From a virus (Duplodnaviria > Caudoviricetes), in IMG/VR virus record IMGVR_UViG_3300045257_000113, positions 1 through 52,349 of that record: a stretch of 52,349 nt of DNA. One strand, given 5' to 3'. The notes beneath the pieces are model-generated. The model ran no database searches and was not told the DNA's origin. It was given only the letters and a program-made list of their open reading frames with translations. The position numbers were made by a program, and so were the translations under genes. Positions 1,987-30,753 of this stretch are shown here, piece after piece. Positions within the stretch are counted from its first letter, which is position 1. The number at the start of each line of letters is the position of its first letter.

Positions 1987-2059
1987 CACCAAAGGTAAGC
2001 TTCCTACTCGCGTGCGAAAGAAAGCGGCGAGAAAGACAAAGAAGAGGAGCAAGCGATGA
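1907..2059 (+). CDS. Small basic phage protein MPAKSRQQQKWAFAVKGAKWARKHHFDTKGKLPTRVRKK... (50 aa, not in ORF track)
   Basis: GGAGGTG SD before the GTG at 1907; the stop overlaps the next ATG (ATGA); resembles the common MPxKSxxQxxW small head-region phage proteins. Confidence 0.7.
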   Translation: MPAKSRQQQKWAFAVKGAKWARKHHFDTKGKLPTRVRKKAARKTKKRSKR

Positions 2060-2283
2060 AGAAGGGCAAAGCAAAGAGTCACACGGGCAAGATTCGTCAC
2101 GGCGACATGGGCAGCCTCATGGATGGTCACGGCAGCCCTGATCCGCTGGCCTCGAAGGAATACAAGGCCCACAATGCCGAGCACGGAATGCCCCACGGCT
2201 TGAGCCCGCAGGGTGAGTACGACAATGGCGGGGAAGAATCGGAAGCCGCTGGCACAGGCGGAAACTGCACGTATCACGAGTGA
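2056..2283 (+). CDS. Hypothetical protein
   Basis: GAGGAG SD, translationally coupled to the upstream ORF. Confidence 0.65.
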   Translation: MKKGKAKSHTGKIRHGDMGSLMDGHGSPDPLASKEYKAHNAEHGMPHGLSPQGEYDNGGEESEAAGTGGNCTYHE

Positions 2284-2303
2284 GCCGACCTTGAGGAATT
2301 AAG

Positions 2304-3739: not shown

Positions 3740-4191
3740 TGAATAAGCGAGCGCTAGACCGCTTTCTCGAAGGTATGCCATCCGATCCGGTCATCCTGAC
3801 TGCTTCGGCCAATGTGGGTATGCGTGAGACTTATCGCCTGATCGTGCTCAAGGCGGCAGCAGGCTTGACTGTGACGCTGCCCAAGGCCACTGGCGCGGGT
3901 ACGCGGCTTCTCTTCGCCGTGGGCACGACTCTTACCAGCAACACCTACGTCATCTCGCGCGCCATTGCTGCTGACGTGATGCAGGGTATTGGCTGGGTGA
4001 GCTTCGGCACGACGAACGTCAACGGCTTCATCCCCGGCGCTGCGGACAACACGATCACCATGAACGGCACGACCTGCGGAGGGTACAAGGGCGACACCGT
4101 GGAATTGTTCGATACGGCCCTCAATTTGTGGTCTGTCCGGTTGTTCTTCCAGGCGACGACCTCGGCGGCCACTCCCTACTCGACCGTGTGA
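3739..4191 (+). CDS. Putative virion structural/decoration protein
   Basis: VTLPKATGAG and ITMNGTTCGGYKGD beta-sandwich-like pattern seen in phage head-region proteins. Confidence 0.55.
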   Translation: MNKRALDRFLEGMPSDPVILTASANVGMRETYRLIVLKAAAGLTVTLPKATGAGTRLLFAVGTTLTSNTYVISRAIAADVMQGIGWVSFGTTNVNGFIPGAADNTITMNGTTCGGYKGDTVELFDTALNLWSVRLFFQATTSAATPYSTV

Positions 4192-4194
4192 GTT

Positions 4195-4542
4195 ATGTCC
4201 CGTTACCGAAAAGCAGTTCAAACTCTGCGAAAGGAAGGCTTTGTGAGCGAGCAGACCAATGTTCAAGACGTGGCGGTGGTGGATAACACGCCGAAAATCC
4301 AGGGCTTGCCTCTGACACTGTTGTTCGACCCGGACACTCAACAGGTCCACCTGGTTTTCAAGCCGGAAGACTATAAGACCTGGGAGTTTGTACTGGCCAC
4401 TCTCGGCATGGCGACGGAGAAGGCCAAGTTGGTCCAGCAGGTGAACCATGCCGCCAGCATGCAGCAGGCCATGATCCAGCAGCAACAGGCTGCACAGATT
4501 GCTCAGTCGCTTCGGTCTCCAAACGGTGGTCGGCGATATTGA
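4195..4542 (+). CDS. Hypothetical protein, Gln-rich C-terminus
   Basis: ORF packed in operon. Confidence 0.65.
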   Translation: MSRYRKAVQTLRKEGFVSEQTNVQDVAVVDNTPKIQGLPLTLLFDPDTQQVHLVFKPEDYKTWEFVLATLGMATEKAKLVQQVNHAASMQQAMIQQQQAAQIAQSLRSPNGGRRY

Positions 4543-4555
4543 TGCTTCGAGCGCT

Positions 4556-4622
4556 GGGTTGCCCGCTATGCGGTCTCCTTAACCTGGTCAGCTCGGGAGA
4601 AGCGCCGCGGGCTACCCCTTTT
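4556..4622 (+). other. Intergenic long irregular hairpin followed by a U-tract
   Basis: GGGTtGCCCGC...GCGGGCtACCC outer stem, TCTCC/GGAGA inner stem, then CTTTT. Confidence 0.5.
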
Positions 4623-4633
4623 AGAAGGCACTC

Positions 4634-5236
4634 ATGTACCTCGACGAACGTAGCGATGCCGCATTTGGAATCAGCAATGCCGCGGGCATGGCTACGGGTC
4701 TGGTATTCCCGACCAACATTCCCACGATTGTTCCTCCAGAGAACCAGCCGCCAGGCCAGGGCGTGGTAGCCAAGGGCGATGGATTGATCCGCCTTGGCTC
4801 GCCGGATGGCGGTACAGCGCCGGCTGGCGTGCTCATTATTCCCTTTGGGACAGGTGGGGCAGGCGCGCAGTTCATGCTTCAGCTCATTGGCTGGTACGCA
4901 TCAAGCTCGAATTTACTCTGGGGAGCGGGGCAGGCGTACAACACCAAGCTTTGGATACCGATACTTCAGGCGCAATACACGATCACGCTGGGGCAAGAGG
5001 TTGGTGATCCCCAGGCGGACATTCAGACCCAGTACAACTTTGCTCAGACCATCGTGCAGACTTACGGACCATCCTTCTGGAACGCCAACTCCACACAGGT
5101 CGATGAGTGGTTCCTGAACGCCCTCAATGGCCAGACTGGCATGATTAAGCACCGTGTCTCGGGCGCTCGCTTTCTAGAGTTTGGCTATTCGCTCATCACA
5201 GCAACCGGGGCCAATTCACTTTGCGGCAAGATTTAG
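4634..5236 (+). CDS. Putative virion structural protein
   Basis: 200 aa ORF between the adaptor and nozzle genes. Confidence 0.5.
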   Translation: MYLDERSDAAFGISNAAGMATGLVFPTNIPTIVPPENQPPGQGVVAKGDGLIRLGSPDGGTAPAGVLIIPFGTGGAGAQFMLQLIGWYASSSNLLWGAGQAYNTKLWIPILQAQYTITLGQEVGDPQADIQTQYNFAQTIVQTYGPSFWNANSTQVDEWFLNALNGQTGMIKHRVSGARFLEFGYSLITATGANSLCGKI

Positions 5237-7960: not shown

Positions 7961-9000
7961 TGCCTTACGGAAACTACGGTGGTTACGGTCATCCGGGCGG
8001 AAGCTACTCTTCCAACCAGAGCAACAATGCTTCCAGCGGATCGTCTTCAGGGTCGAGCAGTTCCTTCCTTGTGCCTGGAGCGCAGGCTGACTACGGCCAA
8101 CTTCTGGCCATGAACGAGCAGAACTACAAACAACTGCTTCCGCTCTACTCGCAAGGACAGGCCGCGATTGGGCAGGGTGTCGGCGCTGCCGAGAACACGC
8201 TTGGCCTGGGCGGAGCTCTAGGAGGGAGCAACTGGGGCGTGGCGCAACCTGCGGCCACAGCCATCCAGCAGCAATTTGCCGCGACAGGTGGGCAGATTAA
8301 GCAAGGGTTGGCCTCGTCTGGTCTGGGTAACTCGACGATGCTCGGGAACATGGAAAACCAGAACACCCTCTTTGAAGGACAGGCCCTCGGTGGGCTTGGG
8401 GCGCAGCTTGCTCAGACGGCGGCCGGCTACCAGATGCAGGGGCTTGGCATGGGCAACCAGCTCACGCAAGGGCTCTTGGGCAACCTTGCTGGATACCGCT
8501 TCGGCAATACGGCGGGCAATTTGCTGGGCACGCAGAGCGCCAACCAGTCGCTGAACAATACCCGTGGAAGCAGCGGCGGCAATCAAGGCTCGCCAGCGGG
8601 AGGTGGCCGTGGCGGGTATGGCGGCGGTGGAAGTTCTGGTAATCCGGTTGCTGGGGCAGGAGGCGGATTTGGTGGAGGCTTCGGCGGCGGGGCAGGTCTG
8701 CCGAGTTTTGGTGGCCCGCCTGTTTCTACGGCAAGCGGAAATCTGATCGGTGGAGGCAACTTCGGGGATGGATTCACGGGCGGGTATGGCGGGTACGGCA
8801 ATTACGCAGGGCAAGGGCTGCAAAGGAATAATCCGGGGGGCACGACTCAAGGCGCAGGTGAAGGCAGTGGCGAAGGCGGCCCAAACTACGCCATGCAGGA
8901 CGCCTTGCAGTTTTCTCAGCCCGGCTTCGACATCAACCGAGCGCCAGGCATTGTGGCGGAGCAAACACGCATGGCTTACCCAGGACAATCCAAACCATGA
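7960..9000 (+). CDS. Putative DNA ejection/pilot protein (Gly/Gln/Ser-rich)
   Basis: Low complexity, LASSGLGNST-type segment, directly after the nozzle as in podoviruses. Confidence 0.55.
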   Translation: MPYGNYGGYGHPGGSYSSNQSNNASSGSSSGSSSSFLVPGAQADYGQLLAMNEQNYKQLLPLYSQGQAAIGQGVGAAENTLGLGGALGGSNWGVAQPAATAIQQQFAATGGQIKQGLASSGLGNSTMLGNMENQNTLFEGQALGGLGAQLAQTAAGYQMQGLGMGNQLTQGLLGNLAGYRFGNTAGNLLGTQSANQSLNNTRGSSGGNQGSPAGGGRGGYGGGGSSGNPVAGAGGGFGGGFGGGAGLPSFGGPPVSTASGNLIGGGNFGDGFTGGYGGYGNYAGQGLQRNNPGGTTQGAGEGSGEGGPNYAMQDALQFSQPGFDINRAPGIVAEQTRMAYPGQSKP

Positions 9001-9860
9001 GCCGACCAAAGGTTCACTTCATCAGCGGCCTTCCCCGCAGCGGTTCGACGCTGCTCTGTAACCTTTTAGGCCAGAACCCACGCTTCCGGGTTGCGGGCAC
9101 ATCCGGGTTGGTGGATACTTTGGTCGAGGTTAGAAACAAGTGGGACCGGATACCGGAGTTCCGGGCGATGAAACCGCCGATGTCTGAGCGAAAGAAGATC
9201 CTTGCTCTGCGTGGTCTGTTCGACAACTACTTTGCTGGCCACTTGGAGGGGGACGAGAAGTACGGCGATGAAAGCACCCCCTGGATGGGGCACGTCCACT
9301 TCGACAAGTCTCGCTCGTGGCTCGGTCACATGGAAATGCTCGAAATGATCTTGGCAGGGCCAGCGAAAGTCATCGTCTGCGTCCGCGATGTCCGCGACGT
9401 GCTGGCCAGCCTGGAGAAGCTTTGGCGGAAGAACTCGGCGACTCGGCAGCTTCCCTTCGAGCGCGACCACTACATGCAGTGCCAGTCCTTGGCAGGCCGC
9501 TTAGCTCTCTGGACGGCGCACGACGGCATCGTGGGCCTGGCGTACAGCCGGATCAAGGATGCGATTCAGCGGGGGTACAGGGATCGGATGCTGTTTGTGC
9601 AGTACGAGCTTTTCACCAGTTTTCCGACAACTACGTTGCGACGGATTTACCAGTTTGTTGGTGAGCCTTGTCCGGCAGACGGGTTTCACAGTTCATCGAA
9701 TGTGGAGCAACTCACCCACGAAAACGACCTGGCTTACGACTTCCCTGGCCTGCATGAAATCCGCCCAAAGATCGAACCGCAGCCTTCCGACTGGGAGGAA
9801 TCGCTGGGGGAAGCGGGAAGACCGTTTGGCGTCTTGAATAAGCTTTGGGAGATGTCATGA
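8997..9860 (+). CDS. PAPS-dependent sulfotransferase (Sulfotransfer_3-like)
   Basis: 5'-PSB loop FISGLPRSGSTLL, 3'-PB motif VRDVRDVLAS, and LFVQYE...IYQFVG. Confidence 0.9.
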   Translation: MSRPKVHFISGLPRSGSTLLCNLLGQNPRFRVAGTSGLVDTLVEVRNKWDRIPEFRAMKPPMSERKKILALRGLFDNYFAGHLEGDEKYGDESTPWMGHVHFDKSRSWLGHMEMLEMILAGPAKVIVCVRDVRDVLASLEKLWRKNSATRQLPFERDHYMQCQSLAGRLALWTAHDGIVGLAYSRIKDAIQRGYRDRMLFVQYELFTSFPTTTLRRIYQFVGEPCPADGFHSSSNVEQLTHENDLAYDFPGLHEIRPKIEPQPSDWEESLGEAGRPFGVLNKLWEMS

Positions 9861-13370: not shown

Positions 13371-15281
13371 ATGCCGAAGGTCATTCGGACGGTAACGCCC
13401 GTCTGGCGCAAACGGCTTGGCTGGCACCCTGGCGAAACAGTAGCGGTAGCGGCAGTCGCCGACAACCTGCCGTGGTTTAAGAGACCGACTCTTCTTCCGC
13501 CCGACCCTCTTCCCTTCGATGGTTTACGGTCCCTCGGCTGGTTAATTGGCAGTGAGCAAGGACAAGGCGGCGACACCCTCCCTTGGCTTGTCCATAGGCC
13601 GATTCTTTATCCGGCAGATCCATCGTTAGATCCTGGGCCACCACGAGGTTGGCTGTTTAGCACAATGGTTGCGCCGCCAGCAACCAGTGCCGATTTCAGT
13701 TGGTGGCGCAGACCAATTGTTCTCTATCCCGATCCTCCGCCATTCGAGCGCCCGCCGCCCTGGAATCCCGGCGTCTTCATGACGGTCCTGACGTTCACCG
13801 GCTCGCCACCGGCAACGACCTGGCGCCCTCCGGCCGGTGTCACCTCAGTCTACGTCGATGCCTGGGGAGCAGGCGGTGGGGGCGGATCTAGTTCTCCATC
13901 TGGCCTTGGCGGTGGCGGCGGTGGCGGTGGCGCCTATGCTCGCGGGCTCGTCTCGGTCAATCCAGCACTTCCTTACGTCGTGCAACCCGGCAATGGCGGG
14001 TTTGGTGGAAGTAACCCGCAAACTGGGGGCCAAGGCGACAATGCTATTTTCGGCGATGTCTCGACCGTAATGGCCAAAGGCGGCGGACCAGGAGGTGGCG
14101 GGAATGCTGGTGTGGCCGGTGGTGGCGGCGTAAGGGGCACGGCTTCTGGAAGCGTTGGCAATATCACCACGATTGATGGCGGCAATGGTGGCAGCGGCGT
14201 CTCAAATCCTGGTGGCGGTGGAGGTAGTTCGGCTGGCAACACGGCTGTCGGCGCGGTAGGCGGTGACTCGTCAGGTGCCACAGAAGGCGCTGGCGGTATC
14301 GCTCCGTTTCCTGGCGGCAATGGCGGAAGCGGCGGTAAGGTTCAGCAGACGGGACATGACGGTACTGTTCCTGGTGGTGGTGGTGGTGGTGGTGGTCTGC
14401 CGATAGCCGGTTGGGCCAATGGCGGCGCGGGGGCCAATGGCAAGATCGTTCTGACATTTGCTTCTTCATCTCCTTCCTACCCGGATCAATTCGAGTGGAT
14501 GCTGAAGTGGAAGCCGCTCTTTCCACCGGACTTTGAATACCTCGGTGCTCAGCACAGCCTGGCATTCATCTTCAGCACGATGGCGCCGCCACCGCCATAC
14601 GTAGAGACTTACGGCTGGGTGCAACATCGTCCCAGCGACGATTCTTTTGCTAAGAAGTTTGAGGCTCTGCCCACGCAGATTACCTGGCGGGCAATGTTTA
14701 GTCCTCAGCAAGCGCCGCCAGCAGCCCCAGAAGGATATGCGTGGATCAGACGGGTGCCCAAGGAAGGCTCGTTCTCCGTGCCATTCGAGCCTCTCCCCAA
14801 TCAGGTGACGTGGCGGCCGATGTTTAGCCCTCAGCAGGGACCGCCGTCTTATGTCGAGACATACGCCTGGATAAATCGAAAGCCCAACGAGAACTCCTTC
14901 TGGCAGCCCCAGCCGCCGCTTGTGCTGCCTCCGCCGTGGATAGGATGGTTTGTTCCCCAAGTCTCGCCTTCCTTAGCCCTGAGTGGTATCGGCCTCATTA
15001 GCCGCGATCCCCAGGCCGACGAGCGCACGCGCCGCCATCTCGATCAGGTGTCGAGTTTGCTCAACTCACTGTTGACGCAGGGCTACATCGTGGCAACGGG
15101 GGTGCAGGCATTCAAAATCGTGGGTGGGGGCGTTAGTATGAACCGAGCGCCCAACGTTATGGACGACGCGGCCCACGGCTTCCCGGTGGGCGTCTTGTGG
15201 GTCCAGACGAGTCCAGCGGTGCATGTGTGGGTAAATGTCAGCAACGCGGTGGGGGCAGCAGTCTGGCAGCTTCTCGTGTGA
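13371..15281 (+). CDS. Glycine-rich tail fibre-like protein with Trp/Pro-rich repeats
   Basis: Central TW.PPAGVTSVYVDAWGAGGGGG...GANGKIVLTF glycine-rich phage domain flanked by ~40-aa W/P repeats. Confidence 0.7.
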   Translation: MPKVIRTVTPVWRKRLGWHPGETVAVAAVADNLPWFKRPTLLPPDPLPFDGLRSLGWLIGSEQGQGGDTLPWLVHRPILYPADPSLDPGPPRGWLFSTMVAPPATSADFSWWRRPIVLYPDPPPFERPPPWNPGVFMTVLTFTGSPPATTWRPPAGVTSVYVDAWGAGGGGGSSSPSGLGGGGGGGGAYARGLVSVNPALPYVVQPGNGGFGGSNPQTGGQGDNAIFGDVSTVMAKGGGPGGGGNAGVAGGGGVRGTASGSVGNITTIDGGNGGSGVSNPGGGGGSSAGNTAVGAVGGDSSGATEGAGGIAPFPGGNGGSGGKVQQTGHDGTVPGGGGGGGGLPIAGWANGGAGANGKIVLTFASSSPSYPDQFEWMLKWKPLFPPDFEYLGAQHSLAFIFSTMAPPPPYVETYGWVQHRPSDDSFAKKFEALPTQITWRAMFSPQQAPPAAPEGYAWIRRVPKEGSFSVPFEPLPNQVTWRPMFSPQQGPPSYVETYAWINRKPNENSFWQPQPPLVLPPPWIGWFVPQVSPSLALSGIGLISRDPQADERTRRHLDQVSSLLNSLLTQGYIVATGVQAFKIVGGGVSMNRAPNVMDDAAHGFPVGVLWVQTSPAVHVWVNVSNAVGAAVWQLLV

Positions 15282-15288: not shown

Positions 15289-15528
15289 ATGACCTGCAAA
15301 GAGTTTTGGGAGATTTCATCCAAGGGGCCTGTTGCCTTACTTCCTTCGGAGATTTTTTGGTGTTTTAGTCACTACGACTCTTGCAGTGCGTGTCGAAATG
15401 AAGTGATTAAGGCCAGGGACGCCACCACGGGAGCGGTCAGAGAAAGAATCGAATGGGAAGCGTCTTATTCTATCGCAAAAATGGCGCGAGCAAAGGCTTT
15501 AGATCCGGAGTTGCAACATGTCCGTTGA
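15289..15528 (+). CDS. zf-HC2 (anti-sigma zinc finger)-like small protein
   Basis: MTCKEF...HYDSCSAC fits MxC...HxxxCxxC; GAGGTG SD. Confidence 0.6.
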   Translation: MTCKEFWEISSKGPVALLPSEIFWCFSHYDSCSACRNEVIKARDATTGAVRERIEWEASYSIAKMARAKALDPELQHVR

Positions 15529-16837
15529 CTATGCCCTCGACGATCCTCTCCCGCCGACAGCCTTGATGCAGGATGCCCAGCAGGGTAACGTGTCGCAGAG
15601 CCAGGTCCCCGCCTTTGCGGACTCGCCTAGAGGCCCGACTGCCCCAGCTCAGAGTTTCGATCAGTACATCCAGTCTGCCCCCTTCGGCCAAGCCGACATT
15701 CAGCGCATCAACCAACTTCAGGCCGGCCTCTCGGGGCTCGACAAACAGGTGATGTCTGGAGAACTCCACCCCGTTGAGGCGCAGGCCCCAAAGCGAGAGA
15801 TCATGGGGCAGCTTGGCCCCTTGCTCCAAAAGAAGCAGCAATCCCAGCAGAAGATGATGCAAGAACAGGCGCAGCAGGCCATGCACGCGGCGGCGATGCA
15901 GGCTGGGGTTGAGAACGTCAACCGGCAGGTGCAGGCAGAGGCTATTCCTTCGCTCATCAGGACGCATACCGATCCGGTGACGGGCGAGACCATGCACCTT
16001 GTTCGAGATCACAAGGGGGATGTTGAGGAACTGAAATTTGAGCGGGAGGCGGCCAACAAGGACCGCATCACGCAGTCCCAGGCCGAGCCGGTTGCGGAAG
16101 AAGGACCGCCAGCCGGAACAGGAGATCAGCCAGACGGTTCGTTTATCCAGCGGATTCGCAACGGCGATCAGTACGAGTTTCACCGCTTCACACCGCGCCC
16201 AGGCGGCGGGTTTGAGACCCAGCCGATTGGGCAAGGCCAGCAAATGCCAGGCGGTCAACTCTCGGCTGGGGCGTTGCAAGAGATCTTCCGCCGTGCCGAC
16301 CAGGCTGTGCCTCAGCCCAAAGGTCAGGGGCCGGGAGGTAGGTTTCTTAACCCACGCATGGCGGCACTGGCGCAGCAACAGAGGAGAGCGGCAGTCGAGT
16401 CGCTGGCTCATTCGATGGTTAACGATGCCCAGCGCGTCCAGGAACATCAGCGGCACGAGACTTCGATGTCGGCAGAACGACAGCGGGCCGAAGCAGAGCG
16501 GCGTTCCCAGATGCAAGAAAAGTTGCAGGAGCAACAACGGCAGAAGCACAAGGACCATGTCGAGGACTACCTGAAGCACGAGAAGGCTTTGACGCGGACA
16601 GAGGATGGCAAGGTTCATTACCCGACGCATGAAGAGATCGTTCAGCACATGAAGAACGCCGAAAAGGCAAAGACGGAATTGGAGGGCCAGAGGCCGGCCG
16701 CCGAAGCTCCAGAGCAAAAACAGAAGTTTGATGATCTCGTGAAGACGCTGATCGCTGCCCCACCAGCTCCTACGGTGCAACCCAAACCGCCGTCAACGCA
16801 TGTCATTCGAGATCCGGGCGAAATGCCTGGGTTCTAG
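15518..16837 (+). CDS. Putative internal virion / ejection protein (Gln-rich coiled coil)
   Basis: 439 aa, helical and Gln/Glu-rich, immediately before the giant protein. Confidence 0.55.
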   Translation: MSVDYALDDPLPPTALMQDAQQGNVSQSQVPAFADSPRGPTAPAQSFDQYIQSAPFGQADIQRINQLQAGLSGLDKQVMSGELHPVEAQAPKREIMGQLGPLLQKKQQSQQKMMQEQAQQAMHAAAMQAGVENVNRQVQAEAIPSLIRTHTDPVTGETMHLVRDHKGDVEELKFEREAANKDRITQSQAEPVAEEGPPAGTGDQPDGSFIQRIRNGDQYEFHRFTPRPGGGFETQPIGQGQQMPGGQLSAGALQEIFRRADQAVPQPKGQGPGGRFLNPRMAALAQQQRRAAVESLAHSMVNDAQRVQEHQRHETSMSAERQRAEAERRSQMQEKLQEQQRQKHKDHVEDYLKHEKALTRTEDGKVHYPTHEEIVQHMKNAEKAKTELEGQRPAAEAPEQKQKFDDLVKTLIAAPPAPTVQPKPPSTHVIRDPGEMPGF

Positions 16838-16840: not shown

Positions 16841-19800
16841 ATGGACGACACCGACACACAAGTTGCTGATTTGCCGGCTCAGACGCCAGAAACTCCTGAA
16901 CCACCACAGGGGGTATTCTCTGCCAAGCCCTGGGAAGAAGTTGCCCCCAAGTTCAAAGAGGCGTTTCCTGCTCTTGACGAAGGCGAGATGAAGCGGCGTT
17001 ACGAGCAAGCTACGCTTCTTGCCCAGACCAGAGCACACTTCAATCAGCAAGGTTATAACCCCGGCGAGTTTGTTGCCAGGCGTGGACTGCCGTTCTCGTC
17101 GGCGGCAATTGGCGCCATGACGGATAGCGATTACACGTCTGCCAAGAAACGCTTCGAGGAAGGCAATCCGCAAAAGGGCGATGAGTTGTCCATCGCCAGT
17201 TATGAGCGATTGAAACGGCTGGATGCGGAAACAGAATCAACTGCTGGAGGATTTGCGGCATCCAAGGCTTTGCAAGGCGGGGCTATCGCGGGCGAGTATT
17301 TTGCTGGCATGGGGGCACTCAGGGCACTCGGCTTATTGCCGCAAGCGGCTGCTGGGGCGAGCCTGGCTTCCCGCGCTGCCAACTTTGCGGGACGGGCCGC
17401 TGCAACAACGGCCACGATGCCTTCAGCCATCCTTCCGGAATGGACCCAGAAGAACATTGAAGCGGGACGAAGTGCTACGGATCTCACTGGTCTGCCCTCG
17501 GCCGTCGCCAAGGGCCTCCTCTTTAATGCCATTCTCGAAGGCACTGGTGGCATAGCAAACAAGCTGCTTCCTGGCGGTGGATTAGCGAGGGCCGCAGGCA
17601 GGGTTCCTACTGCCGCTGCCGGTGGTGTCGCGGCTCAGCAAGTTGCCGACTTTGCTGGCGGCATGATGCAATATGCTTCCGGATTGAAAGGCGACTTCGG
17701 GGCTTTCTTTGAAGGCGACTGGGGAGATGCCGGGAAACGCTTGGCAGCACAGTTTGTTGGCTTTGCCGCCTTTGCTGCCCTTCACGAAGGCTTGGCGGCT
17801 GGCAGACGAGTGCTCGACGAGGCCAAGGAAGAGTTCCAGAAGCAGAAGGGGCTTGGATACTCGTCGGAAGAAGCCCTTCGGTTGGCATACAAGAAGCTTT
17901 CACCGCAAGACGCCTACCGCCGCGCATCTGCCGACATGCACCCGGACAGAAATCCTGGCGAGTCGGAAGCGGCGACTAAGGCAACCAAGGATCTAAACGG
18001 GGCCTATGACGACTACAAGGCGGCCGTCAAGAAAGGCGATGAGGCAGGTGCCAAAGCGGCGGCTGGGCGGATAGATGCGATCCATCAGGCTTGGAATGCC
18101 CGTCCCAAGCCGCAAGCTGCCCAGAAGCCCTCTGAACAAGCCCCGGAAGCGACTGGTGGCGAACAGTACCACGGAATGACCGTCAAAAGGGTCAACGCCG
18201 AAGAGTACCGCCAGCAGAGTCGTTCGGACCAGGAATTGGGGACGGCCAAGGTCCACGGCAACGTAATCTACCTGTCTGACGAGGTGGAACCGGGCAAAGA
18301 TACGGCTACGGTGATGCACCAGGCACTTCTTGAGCATAAGGCTGAGTCGAGAGGGCTGTCCGACGATCAAGCCGAACAGCTGATGATTGCTCATGAGCAC
18401 CACGAAGGCAAAAGGGGGACCGGCGCAGGGGAAGGGAAGGTGGTCCCCGCTAGCGTTTATGCAGATGGCGGAAACGGTGTTGGAAGAACTCAGACTGGCC
18501 AGGTGGTCCGGCTTGTCGATGGAGCAGAGGTCCGAGTTAAGCTTGATCCAACATTCGTTGAGGGAGGCAATCACCAGGCTCTCAAGTACATCCCCAAAGG
18601 AGAAATCTGGGTCGAAAAGACGCTGGCGGGTAAACACCCGCGCGAAGTGGCACTTACGGTTCACCACGAAGCGCTCGAAAGCGAGTTGATGCGCAAGGGT
18701 GCGTCCTACAAGAAGGCTCACCAGAAGGCTTCGCTGTCGGAGTTTGCGCTGCGAAGCGGTCAACAAGGTACGATGACTTCTCAACCACCGCCAACCGCAG
18801 CCGCTCCGGCAGCACCTCACCCCCTGGACGCCTTGGCCAAACGAGCGCAGTCAGGCCGTCCAGTTTCCATTGATGAAGTTGCCGACGCTGCCGGTCTTAA
18901 CGACCGCGAGTACGACCTGCTCATGGAAATGGGTAAGGGCAAGAGGCTGGAAGAGGCAGGACAGGCTATCAGCCTCAATAACCGGCAGCGGGCTCATCAA
19001 ATCGCTGGCGACATTGCCGAGAAGCTTGGCCTAGACCGCTCCCTGTCCAAACAGGTCGAGGATGCCGTTGCCGAACCTGGACTCAAGAAAGATGCGATCA
19101 AGCCCTTGGAAGGTGCAGCTTTCTCCGAAAAGGACATGAGGACCGATCCGGCACTTAAAGCAGAATTGAAACGCGCCAAGGCTCCCCGAAGTGAAGAGGA
19201 ACGCATCTTACAAAGGATGAACAAGCTTGGTCGTAGAATAGAGAGAGAGGCCCGCCAAAACGGCGGTGATTTGACCGATGAACAACACGAACGGTTTGCA
19301 TCCGAGAGTCAACGCCTTGCTGGCGAGCTTGAAGCAGCACGCGCCGAACGAGGGACCATCGAGCCGTCACCCGTTCGACGTGAGCCCAGCGGCCAATTAC
19401 AAGGCGGCAACCCGCCTCTTGGGGCTGCGGGTCCGCAACAAGAAGATCTCGGGCAGCAAGGGGCCGGCAATCCCCCAAGCCGTGCTCAAGCCCCCCGTAA
19501 CAAGCTAAGACAGCCAGGCCAGAAGGGGTCGGGCCGCAAGGGTCAACTTGACATCGGGGCCATCTTCGCCGCTATCAAGGGACCGCCCAAGCCCCAACCC
19601 GCACCAGTCCCGCCATCCAATGAGCCACGTCTGAAGTTCGGCCTACAGCGGACCTTCCCGGCACTGACGAAGCTCAGCCCGCGCACGGGGGCAGCCTTTG
19701 CTCGAGCGGCGAACGCCAAGGCCACGCTGGAGGCAACCAAGAACTACATGGAGCATGCGCTGAAGATAGCCGGCGAGACCATCGCTCACATGAAAGAAGA

Positions 19801-21805
19801 CAGCCCCAAGGACCTTCTGAGCGGCGCTGCGATTATGCAGACCCGCATGGATCTGGAGAGAGCAGCGGCGCAACAGGACGTGGCTCGCCTTCACCAGCAA
19901 CTCAACCAGAAGATCCAGGCCCTTATCGCCAAGAACCCCGCCATCACCCCAGCAGAGATCGCCACGGCCTTGAAGAACGAGATGGCGGCCTTTCAGGAAG
20001 CCAGGAGGCACGCTGGCACTGTCGCGGACCTGATAGGCAAGCCAGGTTCCCCTTTACAGACGCGAGCCGATTATAACCGCGTTATGGGGCACCTGGGGAC
20101 ATTTTTGCAGGATGCTCGCGGGATCTGGACGCCGAAGGTCGAGGGTTACTTCACGGACCTAACAGGACATCCGCCGTCCGGGCGCAACCAGATTCCCGGC
20201 TTTCCCGTCACGGCCATAGCGGTAGACGACCAGGGTCAGCCGCTTGGCAAGGGCGTGGTCCGGACTGGTAACACACTGGCCAATGAACGGCTGCGCAAGG
20301 GTGGCTACACGAAACACGCGGAACTTGAAGAAGACGCCTACGATCTCAGTCTCAAACGGATGATGGAGCGAACGCTTTCCCAGCGCATTCCTGAAGCAAT
20401 GCGAGCTGTGGCCGTGCGGACAGGAGTGCAGGAGGGCGTCATCAAGGTTGTCAAGAAAGGGGAGCAGCCGCCTCAGTTGTGGGAAGAATTAATGCTTAAG
20501 CCCGCCAAGGGCATTCCCGAATTGCCTGCTGGCGAGCGATACTTTACGCATCCCGGCGCGAAAAAGGACATAACACAAGCCCTGAACATTGAGTCAACAG
20601 CAGGTGAGAAGGTTGGCGAAGCGATCAGCACCGCTCTCGGTGGTGGCACAATCCCCGGCAAGTTCCTCGGACGCCTGACCCAGATAACCTTACTCACCCC
20701 GACCGAACTCATGGTCCATCTTGGCGGGAATATCCCCACGGCGCTGTTCAAGGAAGGGATGGGTTTCCCGGTATCCAGCGTCGGCCGTTGGCTGGTGGGC
20801 ATGTGGCACGCCTTCAAGGGAGATCCGCAGTTTCTTGAGAAGCTGATGAAGGTTGCCGAGATCGGAGCATCCTTCGAGCATCGAGAAGGCACAGGACTCT
20901 TTGCCAACCATCCCCTCGACCCGACCTATCTAATCAATAAGGTCTCGACTGCCCTCATCGACTTGGGGCAGGACTCGATGCGCGTCATGGCGGCGGATGC
21001 CTGGGACCGCATGGTAGCGTCTGGGCGCAAGCAACAATCGGAGAGTCTCAAGCGAGACTTCATCAACCAGATCCTTGGCAATTATTCCAAGAATGGCGGG
21101 AATGCTTTTCTGACGCTGCTCAAGGAATTGCACATTCAGCCCTTCGCCACGGCCGCGAGCACGTTCACCGAACAGGGCGTGCGAGCAGGCTACTTCGTCG
21201 GTAACTCGCCGAATCCGACGTGGGCCAAGTTCCTGCTCAACACAGCCTTGCAAATGGCCAAGCTTGCCCCTCTGTTTGTTCTGGGACCTTTCCTGAACTG
21301 GAAGAATCACGGCGAGTGTTTTCCCGCCGATGCCCCGCCATTTGCCATAAAGACTGGAGAAGGCAAGTACGTGGACCCTCTGGGCGTCTTTGGTGGTCGT
21401 CGCGGGTATCGAGCAACAGGGGCCGAAGCCTTAGCAGAGGGCAAGCCAGAGCGAGCATTGGGCGACATCGGTCATGCTGGCATTCATTTGGTTGCTGGCC
21501 CTGCTCCTGATTTCGTCAAGACCGCCATGACAGGCAGCAATCTCCAGGGTACGCAGCTTGCGGCCAAAGTCTCGACGGCAAAGACCGTCACCGGAATCAA
21601 CAAGGCTGCTCAGCGTGGATCGCCGCCAGCCAACTCCAGCCAGGCATGGGAAAATCTGAAGGCTGCCATCATTAACTCCAACTCGCTGCTGAAGACATTC
21701 TTCCCCCAGACGACGACCGAGAAGAACAAGTCTTTGAGCGAGCGGTTCCAGGGGATGATTCCCTTTGGAGAAAAGGGACACGCGCCCAAGGCAAAGAAGC
21801 GGTAA
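16841..21805 (+). CDS. Giant internal virion/ejection (polyvalent) protein with J-domain, zincin-like domains and HTH
   Basis: 1654 aa at the end of the morphogenesis block; Ala/Gly hydrophobic N-terminal helices; AYRRASADMHPDRNPG; IPKGEIWVE...HHEALE; LNDREYDLL...LEEAGQ...RQRAHQI. Confidence 0.75.
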   Translation: MDDTDTQVADLPAQTPETPEPPQGVFSAKPWEEVAPKFKEAFPALDEGEMKRRYEQATLLAQTRAHFNQQGYNPGEFVARRGLPFSSAAIGAMTDSDYTSAKKRFEEGNPQKGDELSIASYERLKRLDAETESTAGGFAASKALQGGAIAGEYFAGMGALRALGLLPQAAAGASLASRAANFAGRAAATTATMPSAILPEWTQKNIEAGRSATDLTGLPSAVAKGLLFNAILEGTGGIANKLLPGGGLARAAGRVPTAAAGGVAAQQVADFAGGMMQYASGLKGDFGAFFEGDWGDAGKRLAAQFVGFAAFAALHEGLAAGRRVLDEAKEEFQKQKGLGYSSEEALRLAYKKLSPQDAYRRASADMHPDRNPGESEAATKATKDLNGAYDDYKAAVKKGDEAGAKAAAGRIDAIHQAWNARPKPQAAQKPSEQAPEATGGEQYHGMTVKRVNAEEYRQQSRSDQELGTAKVHGNVIYLSDEVEPGKDTATVMHQALLEHKAESRGLSDDQAEQLMIAHEHHEGKRGTGAGEGKVVPASVYADGGNGVGRTQTGQVVRLVDGAEVRVKLDPTFVEGGNHQALKYIPKGEIWVEKTLAGKHPREVALTVHHEALESELMRKGASYKKAHQKASLSEFALRSGQQGTMTSQPPPTAAAPAAPHPLDALAKRAQSGRPVSIDEVADAAGLNDREYDLLMEMGKGKRLEEAGQAISLNNRQRAHQIAGDIAEKLGLDRSLSKQVEDAVAEPGLKKDAIKPLEGAAFSEKDMRTDPALKAELKRAKAPRSEEERILQRMNKLGRRIEREARQNGGDLTDEQHERFASESQRLAGELEAARAERGTIEPSPVRREPSGQLQGGNPPLGAAGPQQEDLGQQGAGNPPSRAQAPRNKLRQPGQKGSGRKGQLDIGAIFAAIKGPPKPQPAPVPPSNEPRLKFGLQRTFPALTKLSPRTGAAFARAANAKATLEATKNYMEHALKIAGETIAHMKEDSPKDLLSGAAIMQTRMDLERAAAQQDVARLHQQLNQKIQALIAKNPAITPAEIATALKNEMAAFQEARRHAGTVADLIGKPGSPLQTRADYNRVMGHLGTFLQDARGIWTPKVEGYFTDLTGHPPSGRNQIPGFPVTAIAVDDQGQPLGKGVVRTGNTLANERLRKGGYTKHAELEEDAYDLSLKRMMERTLSQRIPEAMRAVAVRTGVQEGVIKVVKKGEQPPQLWEELMLKPAKGIPELPAGERYFTHPGAKKDITQALNIESTAGEKVGEAISTALGGGTIPGKFLGRLTQITLLTPTELMVHLGGNIPTALFKEGMGFPVSSVGRWLVGMWHAFKGDPQFLEKLMKVAEIGASFEHREGTGLFANHPLDPTYLINKVSTALIDLGQDSMRVMAADAWDRMVASGRKQQSESLKRDFINQILGNYSKNGGNAFLTLLKELHIQPFATAASTFTEQGVRAGYFVGNSPNPTWAKFLLNTALQMAKLAPLFVLGPFLNWKNHGECFPADAPPFAIKTGEGKYVDPLGVFGGRRGYRATGAEALAEGKPERALGDIGHAGIHLVAGPAPDFVKTAMTGSNLQGTQLAAKVSTAKTVTGINKAAQRGSPPANSSQAWENLKAAIINSNSLLKTFFPQTTTEKNKSLSERFQGMIPFGEKGHAPKAKKR

Positions 21806-26058: not shown

Positions 26059-26385
26059 GTGGCCTCGTTCATAATCCTCTTTGTACTGCCGTCAATGAGC
26101 GACATCAGCCGTTTCCCCAGTCCTGCCGAGTGCTCGGCGTACGCTTCGTTTTACCACGAACGAATCGCCTGGACTAAATACCACATTTTCCCCACGCTGG
26201 CCGAGAAAAGAAGGCTAGTATACGAACTCGAAGATGAGCGGGAGTATTGGTACAAGTTCTTTGCCGCGCGTGACGTGCAGTTGCAGGATCATTGCCGCCG
26301 TGAAGCCTTGCTCTGGCTCTGGGTTCGATTGGGGCCGGATTACGGCAAGGCTCTCAGGGCCACTAAACCAAAGGAGACTGTCTAA
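26059..26385 (+). CDS. Hypothetical protein with a hydrophobic N-terminus
   Basis: ORF fills the operon gap; stop overlaps the next start. Confidence 0.55.
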   Translation: MASFIILFVLPSMSDISRFPSPAECSAYASFYHERIAWTKYHIFPTLAEKRRLVYELEDEREYWYKFFAARDVQLQDHCRREALLWLWVRLGPDYGKALRATKPKETV

Positions 26386-27542
26386 TGCAAAAACTTTTGG
26401 CGTTCCTGGCACTTCTTTTTCTTCCCGGTCTGGCGGCTGCTCAGCACGGCAAGGGCTACAAGCCCAATCCGCCAGCGGTGCGGGCTCAGATGCACGCAGA
26501 CGCATTTGCCCGACACGGCAACCGCATCGCCGCTCTTGTGCGCCAGACGGCACCGCCAGCCGAGTTCGATTGCGTGACTCTGGGATGGGTGCCACCGATC
26601 CGAGATCAAGGCCAATGCGGTTCTTGCTGGCTGGTGAGTGCTGCCGACTGCCTGACGTGCTGCTTCATCAAGGGCGGGCTGGGGAAGGCAGACGATAGCT
26701 TCAAGATCAGCGACCAGTACGGAATGGACTGCCACACGGACTGGGGCGGGTGTAACGGCGGTGATGAGGCAAATCCCATCGACTGGTGCAAGAAGACCGG
26801 CTTCCCTGCTGAGCGCTGGGTGAACAACGGCACTCCTCAGAACGATTACCCAGCGTACACGGCCTCGGAGAGTTCTTGTCGGCTGAAGCAAGGCACGAAG
26901 CTTTGGCAGATAGCCGACTGGGGCTACGCTACCTCAGACCAATCGCAGCGTGGCGTCACCGTGGCCGAGTTCAAGGCCGCGATGTACCAGTATGGGGTGC
27001 TCTCGGTAGCCCTGGACGCGGGCGGTGAGTTCGGTAGCTACTCCGGGCAAGGCATCATTAACAGCATGGGCGACAGCATCGACCATGCGATTACGGCCGT
27101 GGGCTGGTCAGATGCGAAACAGGCTATTCGCGTTCGGAACCAGTGGAACGTCGATTGGGGCGACAAGGGGTATGGCTGGATTGCCTACTCTGCCGTGCCG
27201 CACATCGTCGAGGTCATCTGGGTATCGGCCGGGGTGATACCCCCCAAGCCGCCTGACCCGCCAAATCCGCCTGGGCCTGGGGGCACGATCACGCTCAGCG
27301 GGGACACCAAAGCTGGGACGTACCAGCTTGTTCCGTCCGGTAGTGAGATCGTACCGGCAGGGACGAATGCGAAACTGCTTGAACTGCAAATGAAGATCAA
27401 GGAACTCGAAGACTTGCTGAACCCGCCAAAGACAAAGCAGACCAAGGAACCACCAAAGGTCGAGCCAGCCCCGGACAAACCGGCGCCGGTCAAGAAGGAC
27501 GCTATGATCGACAGGCGGCCTCGGTACTTCTTGGCGGCATGA
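26385..27542 (+). CDS. Secreted papain-family (C1A) cysteine peptidase
   Basis: Sec signal peptide; PIRDQGQCGSCW (catalytic Cys), GCNGG, DHAITAVGW (His), VRNQW..WGDKGY (Asn). Confidence 0.92.
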   Translation: MQKLLAFLALLFLPGLAAAQHGKGYKPNPPAVRAQMHADAFARHGNRIAALVRQTAPPAEFDCVTLGWVPPIRDQGQCGSCWLVSAADCLTCCFIKGGLGKADDSFKISDQYGMDCHTDWGGCNGGDEANPIDWCKKTGFPAERWVNNGTPQNDYPAYTASESSCRLKQGTKLWQIADWGYATSDQSQRGVTVAEFKAAMYQYGVLSVALDAGGEFGSYSGQGIINSMGDSIDHAITAVGWSDAKQAIRVRNQWNVDWGDKGYGWIAYSAVPHIVEVIWVSAGVIPPKPPDPPNPPGPGGTITLSGDTKAGTYQLVPSGSEIVPAGTNAKLLELQMKIKELEDLLNPPKTKQTKEPPKVEPAPDKPAPVKKDAMIDRRPRYFLAA

Positions 27543-29868: not shown

Positions 29869-30753
29869 TCAAACGCCGCACATTCCTTGACACTCTTCCG
29901 TCAGGCCGAAGCTTTTCTCTTTCGGCTTCAGCTCCACCATATCCAGCGGCACCATCGAGCGGTGCAGGTACAGTTCCCCGACCATGCCTTCCTTGCCGAA
30001 CTTCTCGAATGCGTTCCGCCGAGCGGCGGAACGCATTGCGTAATCGAACTCTACCGCGTTTTGCCACTCTTCAGGGTTGGCCTTGATCGAAGCCCACTCG
30101 GCATCAGAGTGAAACGGACAGCCAATGCAGGCTGAACGAGGAACATGACGACCCGGATAGTTTGCTTCCAACCAATCTAGGCAGTCTTGGCGGGTGTAGC
30201 CGTGCTCGATAAAGCTGCCTTGCTTCATGATCGTTACATCCGTGATTAGCGGGTAGCGGTGAACCTTCCAGGGTTCGCGTGACTGCCTCATGCGATGCAT
30301 CTCGTCGTAGCTGATGCCAAACCACTGCTCAATTACGACCTCGCGGGGTGATCGTTGACGAGGCTTGAGACCAAGAATGTGCCGCTTAATGAACAACTCG
30401 ATAGGCTCGATCTTGTATTCCGTGGTGCATTGACGGCGAACAATGCCCTGGCTGTCGTCCTTGTTTTTAACAAAGAACGGCATCGACGCAAAGCGTCGAT
30501 GGTCCGCAGACTTTCGATGCTCTCGAAAAGAAATGCTTTCTTCACGCAGGTTGCCAGCGCTAACGACGTGGATTGGTATACCATACTTTGCTGCTTCTTC
30601 TATCAGCCATGCCAAATGGACGTAGACGGCTTTTGGTTCCCACTCGGTATCGGCGAAGATAGCGGCATCGAGTTTCGGCAAGTCACCCTTGCAGGACATG
30701 AGCAGCGCCGTGCTTGATTGCACACCGGCCCCAAGTGACAGCACCTTAATCAT
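29869..30753 (-). CDS. PAPS-reductase-like adenine nucleotide alpha-hydrolase (PP-loop) family protein
   Basis: VLSLGAGVQSS PP-loop, IFADTEWEP, RQCTTEYKIEPI, SACIGCPFH, C-terminal ECQGMC. Confidence 0.85.
   Translation of the reverse strand: MIKVLSLGAGVQSSTALLMSCKGDLPKLDAAIFADTEWEPKAVYVHLAWLIEEAAKYGIPIHVVSAGNLREESISFREHRKSADHRRFASMPFFVKNKDDSQGIVRRQCTTEYKIEPIELFIKRHILGLKPRQRSPREVVIEQWFGISYDEMHRMRQSREPWKVHRYPLITDVTIMKQGSFIEHGYTRQDCLDWLEANYPGRHVPRSACIGCPFHSDAEWASIKANPEEWQNAVEFDYAMRSAARRNAFEKFGKEGMVGELYLHRSMVPLDMVELKPKEKSFGLTEECQGMCGV

Follow-up and report, generated by a model that had tools for sequence, protein, structure and literature searches.

A divergent J-domain motif in a giant phage protein and the probable borrowing of the host chaperone DnaK

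J-domain proteins and polyvalent proteins of phages

J-domains stimulate DnaK through their HPD tripeptide. Sec63 and Pam18/Tim14 are membrane-tethered J-proteins of translocation motors, and the C-terminal J-domain of HopI1, a type III effector of Pseudomonas syringae, engages plant Hsp70. The ejection or internal core proteins of podoviruses include gp14-gp16 of T7 and gp7, gp20 and gp16 of P22, and we know of none that carries a J-domain. Among phages, the first J-domain protein to be characterized was Rki, encoded by gene 057w of the T4-like phage RB43, according to the available text of its report (PMC3486835). As far as the accessible portions of PMC3486835 and PMC7824862 extend, the known phage J-domain proteins are small free-standing genes only, namely Rki and sporadic DnaJ-domain genes. 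The genes of polyvalent proteins stand among late virion genes in the available text of the founding paper (Iyer et al. 2017, PMC5512222), and their products are proposed to be packaged and to enter the cell along with the DNA. Enzymes and DNA-binding domains are known in injected or polyvalent phage proteins; a chaperone recruiter goes unmentioned in the accessible main text of that paper, where the terms 'DnaJ', 'J domain', 'J-domain' and 'Hsp70' do not occur.

Here we describe a giant protein (P0001), translated with no interrupting stop codon from an open reading frame in a 52,349-nucleotide stretch of viral DNA (hereafter the window), whose variable middle region has a J-like module as its first cargo element (Table 1). 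Like Rki in the available part of its report, it would be a phage protein that aims a J-domain at host DnaK at the start of infection; Rki, however, is small, free-standing, early and made after entry, whereas the giant protein is late and would arrive pre-made. It resembles the polyvalent proteins, as set out in the accessible text of PMC5512222, in its giant size, its place among late virion genes and its combination of a scaffold with exchangeable cargo. A sequence-only reading of this DNA knew of no description of Hsp70 recruitment by a J-domain for an ejectosome, and our own literature search yielded no case of a J-domain in an ejection protein; Barriot et al. 2020 (J Mol Biol 432:3771) may list such architectures. 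Nor did the literature searched, parts of it in excerpt, hold a description of a fusion between a polyvalent protein and DnaJ. The one candidate for a DnaJ domain together with an internal virion protein was a zinc-finger DnaJ piece of a DNA polymerase, which is irrelevant here.

Table 1. The giant gene, its parts and its upstream neighbours in the window (residue numbers refer to the giant protein)
Feature	Position	Strand	Basis or remark
Giant open reading frame (P0001), 1654 aa	16841..21805	+	last large gene of the late/structural operon; six-frame self match, homologues
Conserved N-terminal module, residues 26-316 (126-316 Ala/Gly-rich)	16916..17788	+	common to P0002 and P0003
Moderately hydrophobic segment (residues 300-321), the last one, ending ~20 residues short of the J-like module	17738..17803	+	Kyte-Doolittle
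Variable middle (cargo) region, residues 317-930	17789..19630	+	family comparison
Modelled J-like module	17864..18100	+	AlphaFold2
DnaJ-profile core, residues 357-390 (profile positions 19-51 of 63)	17909..18010	+	Pfam, PDB, hhalign, HMM
HPD tripeptide (H367, P368, D369)	17939..17947	+	translation
Part of the middle region common to 7 family members, residues 623-889	18707..19507	+	phmmer, E 3.7e-27 to 1.8e-5
Conserved C-terminal module, residues 931-1654, family signature	19631..21802	+	239 cluster representatives
439-aa open reading frame directly upstream of the giant gene	15518..16837	+	tblastn, ORF layout in related contigs
Tail-fibre-like 636-aa open reading frame with glycine-rich domain, upstream of the giant gene	13371..15281	+	Pfam, PHROG

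The J-like module in sequence and in models

By sequence comparison, the J-domain likeness of the segment is partial, yet above chance. The Pfam DnaJ model (PF00226) matches a 90-aa piece with E 5e-6 and 27.0 bits, the whole protein with E 6.7e-4 and 20.1 bits, and a six-frame scan of the record with 24.8 bits and E 1.2e-6; all these scores lie below the curated cut-off of 27.8 bits, so that the Pfam match named as a check in the sequence-only reading exists but stays short of the threshold. All 15 PDB sequences retrieved at E <= 1 are J-domain proteins (best E 0.0055). Comparison with 62 small J-domain proteins gave a probability of 96.1% over 39 columns with hhalign (E 3.2e-9), and an HMM built from the same 62 scored 27.3 bits (E 2.5e-8, HMM positions 54-101). 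These alignments are confined to a stretch that runs from the C-terminal half of helix II through the HPD loop into helix III; none of Pfam, hhalign and the HMM extended it to the start of helix II or to helix I, and MAFFT placed the residues upstream of the matched core in two different ways. The match to helix II, HPD and helix III first read from the letters is therefore borne out by translation and profiles, with helix II represented by its C-terminal half alone.

What is kept within this core (where residues 358-390 read AYRRASADMHPDRNPGESEAATKATKDLNGAYD) comprises Y-R-R on helix II, an HPD-R-N-P-G loop and the helix III lysine K383, which corresponds to DnaJ K48; the likeness to the J-domain of DnaJ/Hsp40, for which the E. 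coli DnaJ-DnaK complex 5NRO in the available text of PMC8215388 is the reference, thus includes A-Y-R-R before and R-N-P-G after the tripeptide. In an alignment to E. coli DnaJ (1bqz) anchored on HPD as residues 33-35, R360/R361 correspond to K26/R27 and K383 to K48. Five basic residues of the J-domain position DnaJ on DnaK according to the accessible part of PMC8215388 (R22, K26, R27, K48 and K51), and three of them are kept (R360, R361 and K383), with Q356 in place of R22 and N386 in place of K51. The same alignment puts small residues at conserved core positions (L28 to A362, F47 to T382). On these comparisons the segment is a divergent and N-terminally eroded J-domain relative that retains the Hsp70-activating signature. 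It differs from DnaJ in that helix I finds no match, that the models give it a far longer third and fourth helix, and that the module is embedded at about residue 340 of a 1654-aa phage protein.

The modelled helices span residues 342-352, 355-365 (helix II), 375-398 (helix III, after an HPD loop at 366-374) and 401-420 (a fourth helix). Similar helices were obtained with AlphaFold2 from the single sequence and from a 66-row alignment of J-domains, the latter model having a mean pLDDT of 78.4 with blocks of 82-94 over residues 355-414, and its construction on a J-domain alignment being counted as a caveat. In both models HPD sits between helix 355-365 and the antiparallel helix 375-398, as a J-domain would have it, but the overall shape is that of a generic antiparallel bundle in which helices three and four are long. 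Foldseek returned nothing at E <= 0.001 with either model, the best J entry being DNAJB6 at rank 16 (E 2.2), and VIA-align, run against 48,161 representative chains and Foldseek's 281 best chains, listed helical bundles of a generic kind (Z up to 9.9) and no J-domain in its top 50.

A complex model of the J-like module with E. coli DnaK 1-605 and ATP, the E. coli chaperone serving as a stand-in that may not be the host's, scored 0.62, against 0.00 for the best of three controls; among solved complexes 116 of 157 reach the mark for this measure, among mismatched pairs 2 of 215. The runs share at least 90% of their contacts, and the partner pLDDT is at least 82. On the DnaK side the modelled interface comprises residues 208-217, 381-392, 413-421 and 477-480, regions that are those named for the solved DnaK-J complex in the available text of PMC8215388. 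On the partner side it involves R360/R361, H367-R370 and helix III, with K383 paired to D477 and residues 367-370 in contact with the DnaK linker at 390-392. The predicted docking resembles that of DnaJ in lying over the DnaK linker, NBD 208-217 and SBD-beta 416-421/477, and the model thus supports a placement of the J-like module on the canonical J site of DnaK, with a score that may stem from the model's prior exposure to the solved DnaK-J complex. The recruitment of Hsp70 proposed by the sequence-only reading gains from the retained signature, from the recurrence of J-domains in the protein family described below and from this controlled complex model; the fold searches did not recover the J fold.

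The same data bear on whether the segment could be a decayed remnant, derived from a J-domain, deprived of its fold and of its action on DnaK, and now serving as a helical linker or bundle. The partial match with scores under the cut-off, the replaced core residues, the resemblance of the models to generic three-helix bundles and the absence of J-domains from the fold searches would all fit such a history. However, the segment has kept the functional surface (Y-R-R, HPD-R-N-P-G and K383) and lost the core, which is the reverse of neutral decay; the kept residues are modelled on the DnaK site, where the controls scored 0.00; and three other members of the same protein family have J-domains with HPD intact. 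We therefore consider decay improbable.

The region preceding the module (residues 126-316) is 41% Ala+Gly, in agreement with the Ala/Gly-rich stretch noted before, but its hydrophobicity proved weak: the 19-residue Kyte-Doolittle mean in the N-terminal half of the protein peaks at 1.35 (residues 300-321), under the usual transmembrane range. A membrane tether, which the comparison with membrane-bound J-proteins had implied, accordingly fared poorly. No close relative of the J-bearing stretch was found: a word-index search with residues 325-440 among 641 candidates (proteins of 909-2895 aa) retrieved the query only, a metagenome scan with residues 317-645 gave 160 pattern matches and no relatives, and a viral-contig scan with the whole protein gave 6 pattern matches and no relatives. 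Residues 317 to ~620 had no relative among the family proteins compared, and an Atlas search with residues 446-645 met only viral clusters without names.

A family of giant proteins with exchangeable cargo

The giant protein belongs to a family of giant phage proteins whose C-terminal module matches 239 cluster representatives at E <= 0.001 and 48 at E <= 1e-30. In the following, counts out of 151 refer to members among the matches listed, of the 239 representatives, and 50 members were scanned with Pfam. The N-terminal module was found by phmmer in 78 of the 151 proteins and in 76 of the 100 with at least 1500 aa, and members share an organization in which an N-terminal Ala/Gly-rich module and a C-terminal module of ~720 aa frame exchangeable cargo. 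Neither module has a Pfam model, the C-terminal module has no relative in the PDB, and tblastn with the giant protein or with a second C-module protein (P0035) gave no match to isolated phages in INPHARED (50,697 phage records). With 239 representatives, no isolate, no Pfam model for either module and no solved structure, this is therefore a sizeable uncharted group of phage proteins.

Six different cargo families were recognized with Pfam among the 50 members: ddrB-ParB in three (P0002, P0013 and P0046), GGDEF in four, sigma-70 region 4 in four, LPD38 in one (P0003), an Sbno-type helicase in one and DnaJ in four. DdrB-ParB, LPD38, GGDEF and helicase are among the domain types treated in the accessible text of PMC5512222, and in this respect the relatives strengthen the likeness to polyvalent proteins. 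The giant protein itself differs from these in having no second recognizable domain and no metallopeptidase: Pfam detected no zincin-like metallopeptidase, LPD or DdrB-ParB in it, and no second domain at E <= 0.1, whether the whole protein or four separate pieces were scanned. The part of its middle region that recurs in other members (residues 623-889) aligns in one of them (P0025) with residues 1004-1265, which hold a Sigma70_r4 helix-turn-helix at 1059-1110 (25.6 bits), and gave no match of its own to Sigma70_r4 or any other Pfam family. Assignment of the giant protein to LPD38 (PF18857) found no support: the record has no match at E <= 10 (nor have the control genomes), 13 C-module sequences gave none, and hhalign of the C-terminal module against P0003 gave a probability of 0.75%. 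The sole link to LPD38 is a language-model likeness of the C-terminal module (score 0.96), with 21 of its 30 nearest named clusters bearing LPD38.

J-domains recur within this family. Four of the 151 members, the giant protein included, match the J-domain HMM at E <= 2.5e-8, the next best match being at 0.043, and two of the four pass the Pfam DnaJ cut-off (P0049 with 65.2 bits and P0104 with 33.4 bits). The survey for further J-domains suggested by the sequence-only reading thus succeeded within the same giant family, and HPD is intact in all four J-bearing members; no close relative was found to carry the segment of the giant protein itself. In three of the four, the J-domain comes ~25-135 residues after the N-terminal module. 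That at least four members have one suggests that certain phages come equipped with an adaptor of their own for host Hsp70. Since only 4 of the 151 members have one, a J-domain is not needed for the core function of the family.

This distribution also bears on a role in the producing cell, where DnaK would act late to keep the protein soluble or unfolded until the particle is built, with no part in entry. For the free-standing DnaJ-domain genes of jumbo phages, the available text of PMC7824862 predicts a role in bringing host Hsp70 to folding and assembly, the giant gene lies in a late operon, and a protein of 1654 aa with a 41% Ala+Gly region might need such help. Yet 147 of the 151 members do without a J-domain while having the same N- and C-terminal modules, and the J-domain occupies the slot that elsewhere holds ParB-like, GGDEF and helicase domains, which are sensible only in the next host. 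An assembly aid of this kind seems to us of low probability.

The gene neighbourhood points in the same direction as the cargo. Terminase and a portal-like gene lie at 45008-48892 and an SU10-type adaptor at 2936-3739, and fibre-like genes are followed by the giant gene at the end of the late structural operon, all on the same strand, in an order kept in related contigs of ~50 kb. The 636-aa open reading frame matches Pfam Gly_rich_2 (1.9e-11) and a PHROG of tail fibre assembly (2.8e-9), and its C-terminal part has a match in four of five related loci. The ORF layout beside the giant gene was compared across five loci (L005-L009), and the 439-aa open reading frame is conserved in position and weakly in sequence (tblastn in L006, L007 and L009, E 2e-17 to 4e-9). 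No PHROG family matched either this neighbour or the giant protein.

The sequence-only reading had called the giant protein an ejection protein, and as one of a known type it was not recovered: no likeness to ejection or core proteins was found with PHROG, with the PDB for the C-terminal module or with tblastn against INPHARED. It resembles the podovirus ejection proteins in being large, in its place in the structural operon of a probably short-tailed phage and in that, if delivered, it would have to get through the tail channel to reach its site of action in the cytoplasm or envelope; it differs from them in showing no detectable sequence similarity (PHROG; 50,697 phage records). Might it, then, never be delivered, being a structural tail or tape-measure-like protein or a late protein outside the virion, with a J module unrelated to entry? 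The lack of a match to a known ejection or internal core protein leaves room for this, and long helical Ala/Gly-rich tail-module proteins can be tape measures. Against it stand the position of the gene after fibre-like genes at the operon end, the SU10-type adaptor, which points to a short-tailed phage, the absence of tail tube, sheath and tape-measure families from the structural genes scanned, and the enzymatic and DNA-binding cargo of the relatives, which is typical of injected polyvalent proteins. A tape-measure protein was judged unlikely, and non-delivery as a whole would come as a considerable surprise. The position at the end of the late operon and the polyvalent cargo of the relatives instead suggest that the giant protein is delivered with the DNA.

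How the J-like module might be used

With a divergent J-domain motif in the giant protein, the phage probably borrows the host chaperone DnaK for this protein. The best explanation of the data, which we favour tentatively, is that the module recruits host DnaK in cis, to handle the giant protein that carries it. A polyvalent-like protein would be packaged and delivered with the DNA, and its first cargo element, at residues ~342-420, would be the J-like module with its Hsp70-acting parts retained. The module would settle across the interdomain linker of host DnaK in its ATP-bound state; docking would trigger ATP hydrolysis and clamp DnaK onto nearby stretches of the same polypeptide, and once the long protein had come through the narrow tail channel, DnaK would pull, hold or refold it together with its cargo. 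That the protein is packaged and injected, that the module acts in cis, and when it does so, are what we infer. If so, the system bears on the means by which very long proteins, obliged to exit the capsid in unfolded form, are drawn out, refolded or made active in the new cell.

Local action of this kind has to be weighed against host take-over in trans, in the manner of Rki, in which DnaK would be diverted or occupied, so that sigma-32 is stabilized, heat-shock proteins are induced or a DnaK-dependent function is blocked. Such action, itself a rather doubtful prospect, could set in at the first moment of infection, with the protein arriving ready-made. In the available text of PMC3486835, the J-domain protein Rki binds DnaK, is produced early, does not serve as a generic co-chaperone and stabilizes sigma-32, and the accessible text of PMC5512222 proposes that polyvalent cargo modifies the host at entry. 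When viral contigs were screened with the J-domains of all four family members, 33 pattern matches yielded two loci, and the closest viral match to the segment is a free-standing J-domain protein of 164 aa (L003); the other locus (L004) has no long open reading frame across its J-domain match. The DnaK docking model fits action in trans as well as in cis. On the other side, no client-specifying domain is recognizable with Pfam beside the module, and the J-domain's position right after the N-terminal module in three of four members suggests a link to the topology of the protein itself. Moreover, the injected protein, with perhaps a single copy or a handful in each cell, would face a chaperone present in abundance, which favours local action in cis. 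We thus regard take-over in trans as somewhat unlikely.

A more specific form of action in cis would make DnaK an import motor. The J-module, beside the Ala/Gly module, would stand at the cytoplasmic mouth of the entry channel, an arrangement that would have arisen several times in the family, and repeated clamping by DnaK would ratchet the unfolded giant protein, and perhaps a bound leading end of the DNA, inward. We hold this version to be decidedly unlikely; if true, viruses of bacteria would possess their own equivalent of the Pam18/mtHsp70 and Sec63/BiP motors. By analogy, the module resembles Sec63, Pam18 and DjlA in that a J-domain may lie beside a hydrophobic, possibly membrane-associated segment and direct Hsp70 locally at a channel; it differs in having no sequence relation to them beyond the J-domain and in the weakness of its hydrophobic segments, with their maximum of 1.35. 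DjlA is a DnaK partner of E. coli in the accessible text of PMC8215388. A ratchet like that of Sec63 or Pam18 is one of at least three readings that fit the same data.

HopI1 offers another analogy, as an injected protein whose J-domain seizes the Hsp70 of the recipient, in the way the giant protein may do; it differs in that it is an effector of bacteria that works inside eukaryotic cells, in its secretion route and in the unrelated remainder of the protein. For experiment, the J-module provides a simple handle in a single H-to-Q change. Bare HPD tripeptides as such are frequent in the family, with 64 occurrences in the 151 proteins, 31 of which belong to an unrelated motif of the C-terminal module.

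A J-domain relative within the giant protein

On re-translation of P0001, the giant late-operon protein of the window, residues 358-390 and the HPD tripeptide (H367-P368-D369) read as in the sequence-only reading, which had taken them for part of a J-domain. The Pfam DnaJ profile indeed aligned to residues 357-390, but at half length (profile positions 19-51 of 63) and with scores of 27.0 bits (E 5e-6; 90-residue piece) and 20.1 bits (whole protein), all P0001 scores being below the cut-off of 27.8 bits. A six-frame scan of the window gave this segment as the single DnaJ site (24.8 bits). J-domain proteins made up all 15 matches at E <= 1 in a PDB sequence search with residues 325-440 (best E 0.0055), and profile-profile comparison of the segment with 62 small J-domain proteins yielded a probability of 96.1% (E 3.2e-9) over 39 columns. 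In each alignment helix II was matched over its latter half only, and beyond it just the HPD loop and helix III; the residues upstream were placed differently in two MAFFT runs. By sequence, the segment is a J-domain relative, though a partial and divergent one.

When P0001 was aligned with E. coli DnaJ and anchored on the HPD (residues 33-35 of DnaJ), the HPD and Y25/K26/R27, R36/N37 and K48 were found to be retained (as Y359/R360/R361, R370/N371 and K383), R22 and K51 had become Q356 and N386, and the core residues L28 and F47 had become A362 and T382. Because the Y-R-R, HPD, R-N and K positions are kept and L28 and F47 of the core are lost, the predicted Hsp70-acting surface is better preserved than the core. 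Two AlphaFold2 models, from the single sequence and from a 66-row J-domain alignment (mean pLDDT 78.0 and 78.4, with low confidence over the N-terminal 30 residues of the piece), contained the same helices (342-352, 355-365 and, after the HPD loop, the long 375-398 and 401-420). In the models the HPD is predicted to sit where two antiparallel helices are joined by a loop, so that a J fold is possible, yet overall this is not a textbook J-domain. Foldseek with both models returned no match at E <= 0.001, VIA-align listed generic helical bundles (Z up to 9.9), and no J-domains came up in these fold searches. The long Ala/Gly hydrophobic region described ahead of the motif holds in composition (41% Ala+Gly at residues 126-316), but its hydropathy is moderate; the last and strongest hydrophobic stretch (300-321) has a Kyte-Doolittle mean of 1.35, below the value expected of a membrane span.

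In the viral-contig survey, the segment was most similar to a free-standing 164-residue J-domain protein on contig L003 (45% identity across 44 residues), whose helix II/HPD stretch reads …AYRKASAKYHPDRNP….

A modular family with variable cargo

P0001 has only two modules in common with its closest relatives, an N module (residues 26-316; also in P0002 and P0003) and a C module (931-1654; also in P0002, at 33% identity). An exhaustive C-module search returned 239 cluster representatives at E <= 0.001, of which 48 remained at <= 1e-30. The family set examined comprised 151 proteins (150 among the matches listed, and P0003; median length 1710 residues), and the N module was detectable in 78 of them, including 76 of the 100 with at least 1500 residues. 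The sequence between the modules, here called cargo, is variable: P0001 residues 317 to ~620 have no relative among the 151 proteins, and residues 623-889 are common to 7 members. Pfam scans of 50 members gave, for this middle region, the cargo domains in the table. The family as a whole has no PHROG family, no solved relative and no member in isolate phages (tblastn, phage records).

Features of the window and of related proteins
Feature	Location	Strand	Basis
P0001 ORF, 1654 residues	16841-21805	+	translated ORF
HPD tripeptide of P0001	17939-17947	+	translation
Two similar stretches in P0001	18176-18775	+	
P0001 residues 623-889	18707-19507		
C-module HPD-motif site	about 20513-20530	+	
Motif near C-module end	21500-21620	+	
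SU10-type adaptor	2936-3739	+	gene scan of window
Large terminase	45008-46852	+	gene scan of window
Portal-like gene	47036-48892	+	gene scan of window
Head/packaging genes	45008-52349	+	
Structural genes at record start	1-5236	+	
Sulfotransferase	8997-9860	+	Pfam Sulfotransfer_3, 9.5e-18
Papain-family cysteine peptidase	26385-27542	+	Peptidase_C1, 6.4e-29
PAPS-reductase-like gene	29869-30753	-	PHROG 424, 1e-41
206-aa ORF	49313-49933		E1_FCCH-like, weak (2.2e-7)
Free-standing J-domain protein	L003, 2888-3382	+	
ddrB-ParB	cargo of P0002, P0013, P0046		Pfam
GGDEF	cargo of P0003, P0111, P0044, P0090		Pfam
Sigma-70 region 4	cargo of P0104, P0025, P0063; P0011 just below cut-off		Pfam
LPD38	cargo of P0003		Pfam
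Sbno-type helicase	cargo of P0083		Pfam
DnaJ	four members (P0049, P0104, P0021, P0001)		Pfam

An HMM derived from the 62 small J-domain proteins and run on the 151 family proteins matched these same four DnaJ-bearing members at E <= 2.5e-8 (next best match, 0.043), and the HPD is intact in all four. Pfam DnaJ scores exceeded the cut-off in P0049 (65.2 bits) and P0104 (33.4 bits) but not in P0021 (25.6 bits); the HMM matched the whole domain in these three and its second half only in P0001. The domain lies within about 25-135 residues after the N module in P0001, P0104 and P0021 and directly ahead of the C module in P0049, and none was found in five related viral loci. With 4 of 151 members carrying one, the J-domain counts as optional cargo in the family, neither a one-sequence fluke nor a core part. 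That the P0001 segment is the decayed remnant of a J-domain is improbable.

Both free-standing phage J-proteins (PMC3486835; PMC7824862) and polyvalent phage proteins (PMC5512222) are already known. The terms "DnaJ", "J domain", "J-domain" and "Hsp70" are absent from the main text of the paper on polyvalent proteins (PMC5512222), and we found in the literature no virion, ejection or polyvalent phage protein described as containing a J-domain, although surveys and supplementary lists may include such fusions.

Several other features of the family were observed. A C-module motif, Y/F-V/A-H-P-D, occurs in most relatives, and 31 of the 64 HPD tripeptides counted across the 151 proteins belong to it; it is unrelated to the J-domain HPD, and P0001 has F-T-H-P-G at this site (residues 1225-1242). 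Close to its end, the C module also has a short G-P...T-A-x-T-G-x-N-x-x-G motif, which aligns with the LPD38 match of P0003 (2254-2282). HMMs did not confirm LPD38 membership of the P0001 C module (hhalign probability against the P0003 region, only 0.75%); language-model likeness in the Atlas, which sets the C module beside LPD38-bearing clusters (0.96), is the sole pointer to LPD38, and a distant link is possible. P0104, P0025, P0063 and P0011 all carry a sigma-70 region 4 helix-turn-helix in their cargo, and P0001 residues 623-889 are homologous to the stretch bearing it, with no Pfam match of their own; a DNA- or RNA-polymerase-directed function of the putatively injected protein is conceivable. 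Residues 446-645 contain two similar stretches, ending ...TVMHQALLEH... and ...TVHHEALESE..., which suggest that an unassigned domain with paired His/Glu was duplicated internally; Pfam gave no match, and in the Atlas only viral clusters without names came up, apart from a weak lead to Peptidase_M78 (0.80).

Probable delivery and possible action on host DnaK

Injection with the DNA has been proposed for polyvalent proteins (Iyer et al. 2017, PMC5512222). The P0001 family has the same architecture, with varied cargo including ddrB-ParB and LPD38, two domains described as confined to phage-type polyvalent proteins (PMC5512222). Phage genes for such proteins lie among late virion genes (PMC5512222), and the P0001 gene, which comes after the adaptor and fibre-like genes and shares the + strand with the large terminase and portal-like genes, fits this placement. 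The order in the window is SU10-type adaptor, fibre-like genes, a 439-aa ORF and the P0001 gene; five related viral contigs have the same order, with giant ORFs of 1716-2139 residues, and relatives of the giant gene lie on contigs of about 49-53 kb. From the polyvalent-like architecture and the late-operon context we infer that P0001 is packaged and injected, and we consider it very improbable that the giant protein is not delivered into a cell at all. The record itself (linear, 52,349 bases, estimated completeness 69%) looks circularly permuted or cut inside the head module, because the head genes run off one end and structural genes restart at the other.

A J-domain docks on ATP-bound Hsp70, triggers hydrolysis and clamps Hsp70 on a nearby polypeptide (PMC8215388). 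Since the nearest client of a J-domain fused in a very long protein is that protein, we tentatively favour, at somewhat less than an even chance, action in cis: on reaching a new cell, the J-module would recruit host DnaK to the giant protein itself, and DnaK would pull on, hold or refold the protein and its cargo. The boldest form of this idea is the motor at the entry channel proposed in the sequence-only reading. On the same data, the module might instead divert host DnaK, for which the phage J-domain protein Rki is a precedent (PMC3486835); this is rather unlikely. Folding and assembly help, as predicted for jumbo-phage DnaJ genes (PMC7824862), would place the action in the producing cell and is improbable.

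The complex of the segment with E. coli DnaK 1-605 and ATP, in which this DnaK is a stand-in for that of the phage host, was predicted with a score of 0.62 against 0.00 for the best of three controls. It thereby passed a mark that 116 of 157 solved complexes attained, as against 2 of 215 mismatched pairs. Contacts agreed between runs to at least 90%, and partner pLDDT was at least 82. The modelled interface comprises DnaK 208-217, 381-392, 413-421 and 477-480 and, on the segment, R360/R361, H367-R370 and helix III, with K383 adjoining D477. These DnaK regions coincide with those of the solved DnaK-J complex, which include E206/D211/E217, L391, P419 and D477 (PMC8215388). Because a similar complex is already solved, the pass of the model shows likeness to the DnaK-J complex, not proof that the segment binds.

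Other genes of the record

The sulfotransferase gene lies within the tail/fibre block and the PAPS-reductase-like gene on the opposite strand; the two may form a small sulfur/sulfation tool kit of the phage. The E1_FCCH-like match falls in a 206-aa ORF, and the cysteine peptidase gene is found a few kb downstream of the P0001 gene.
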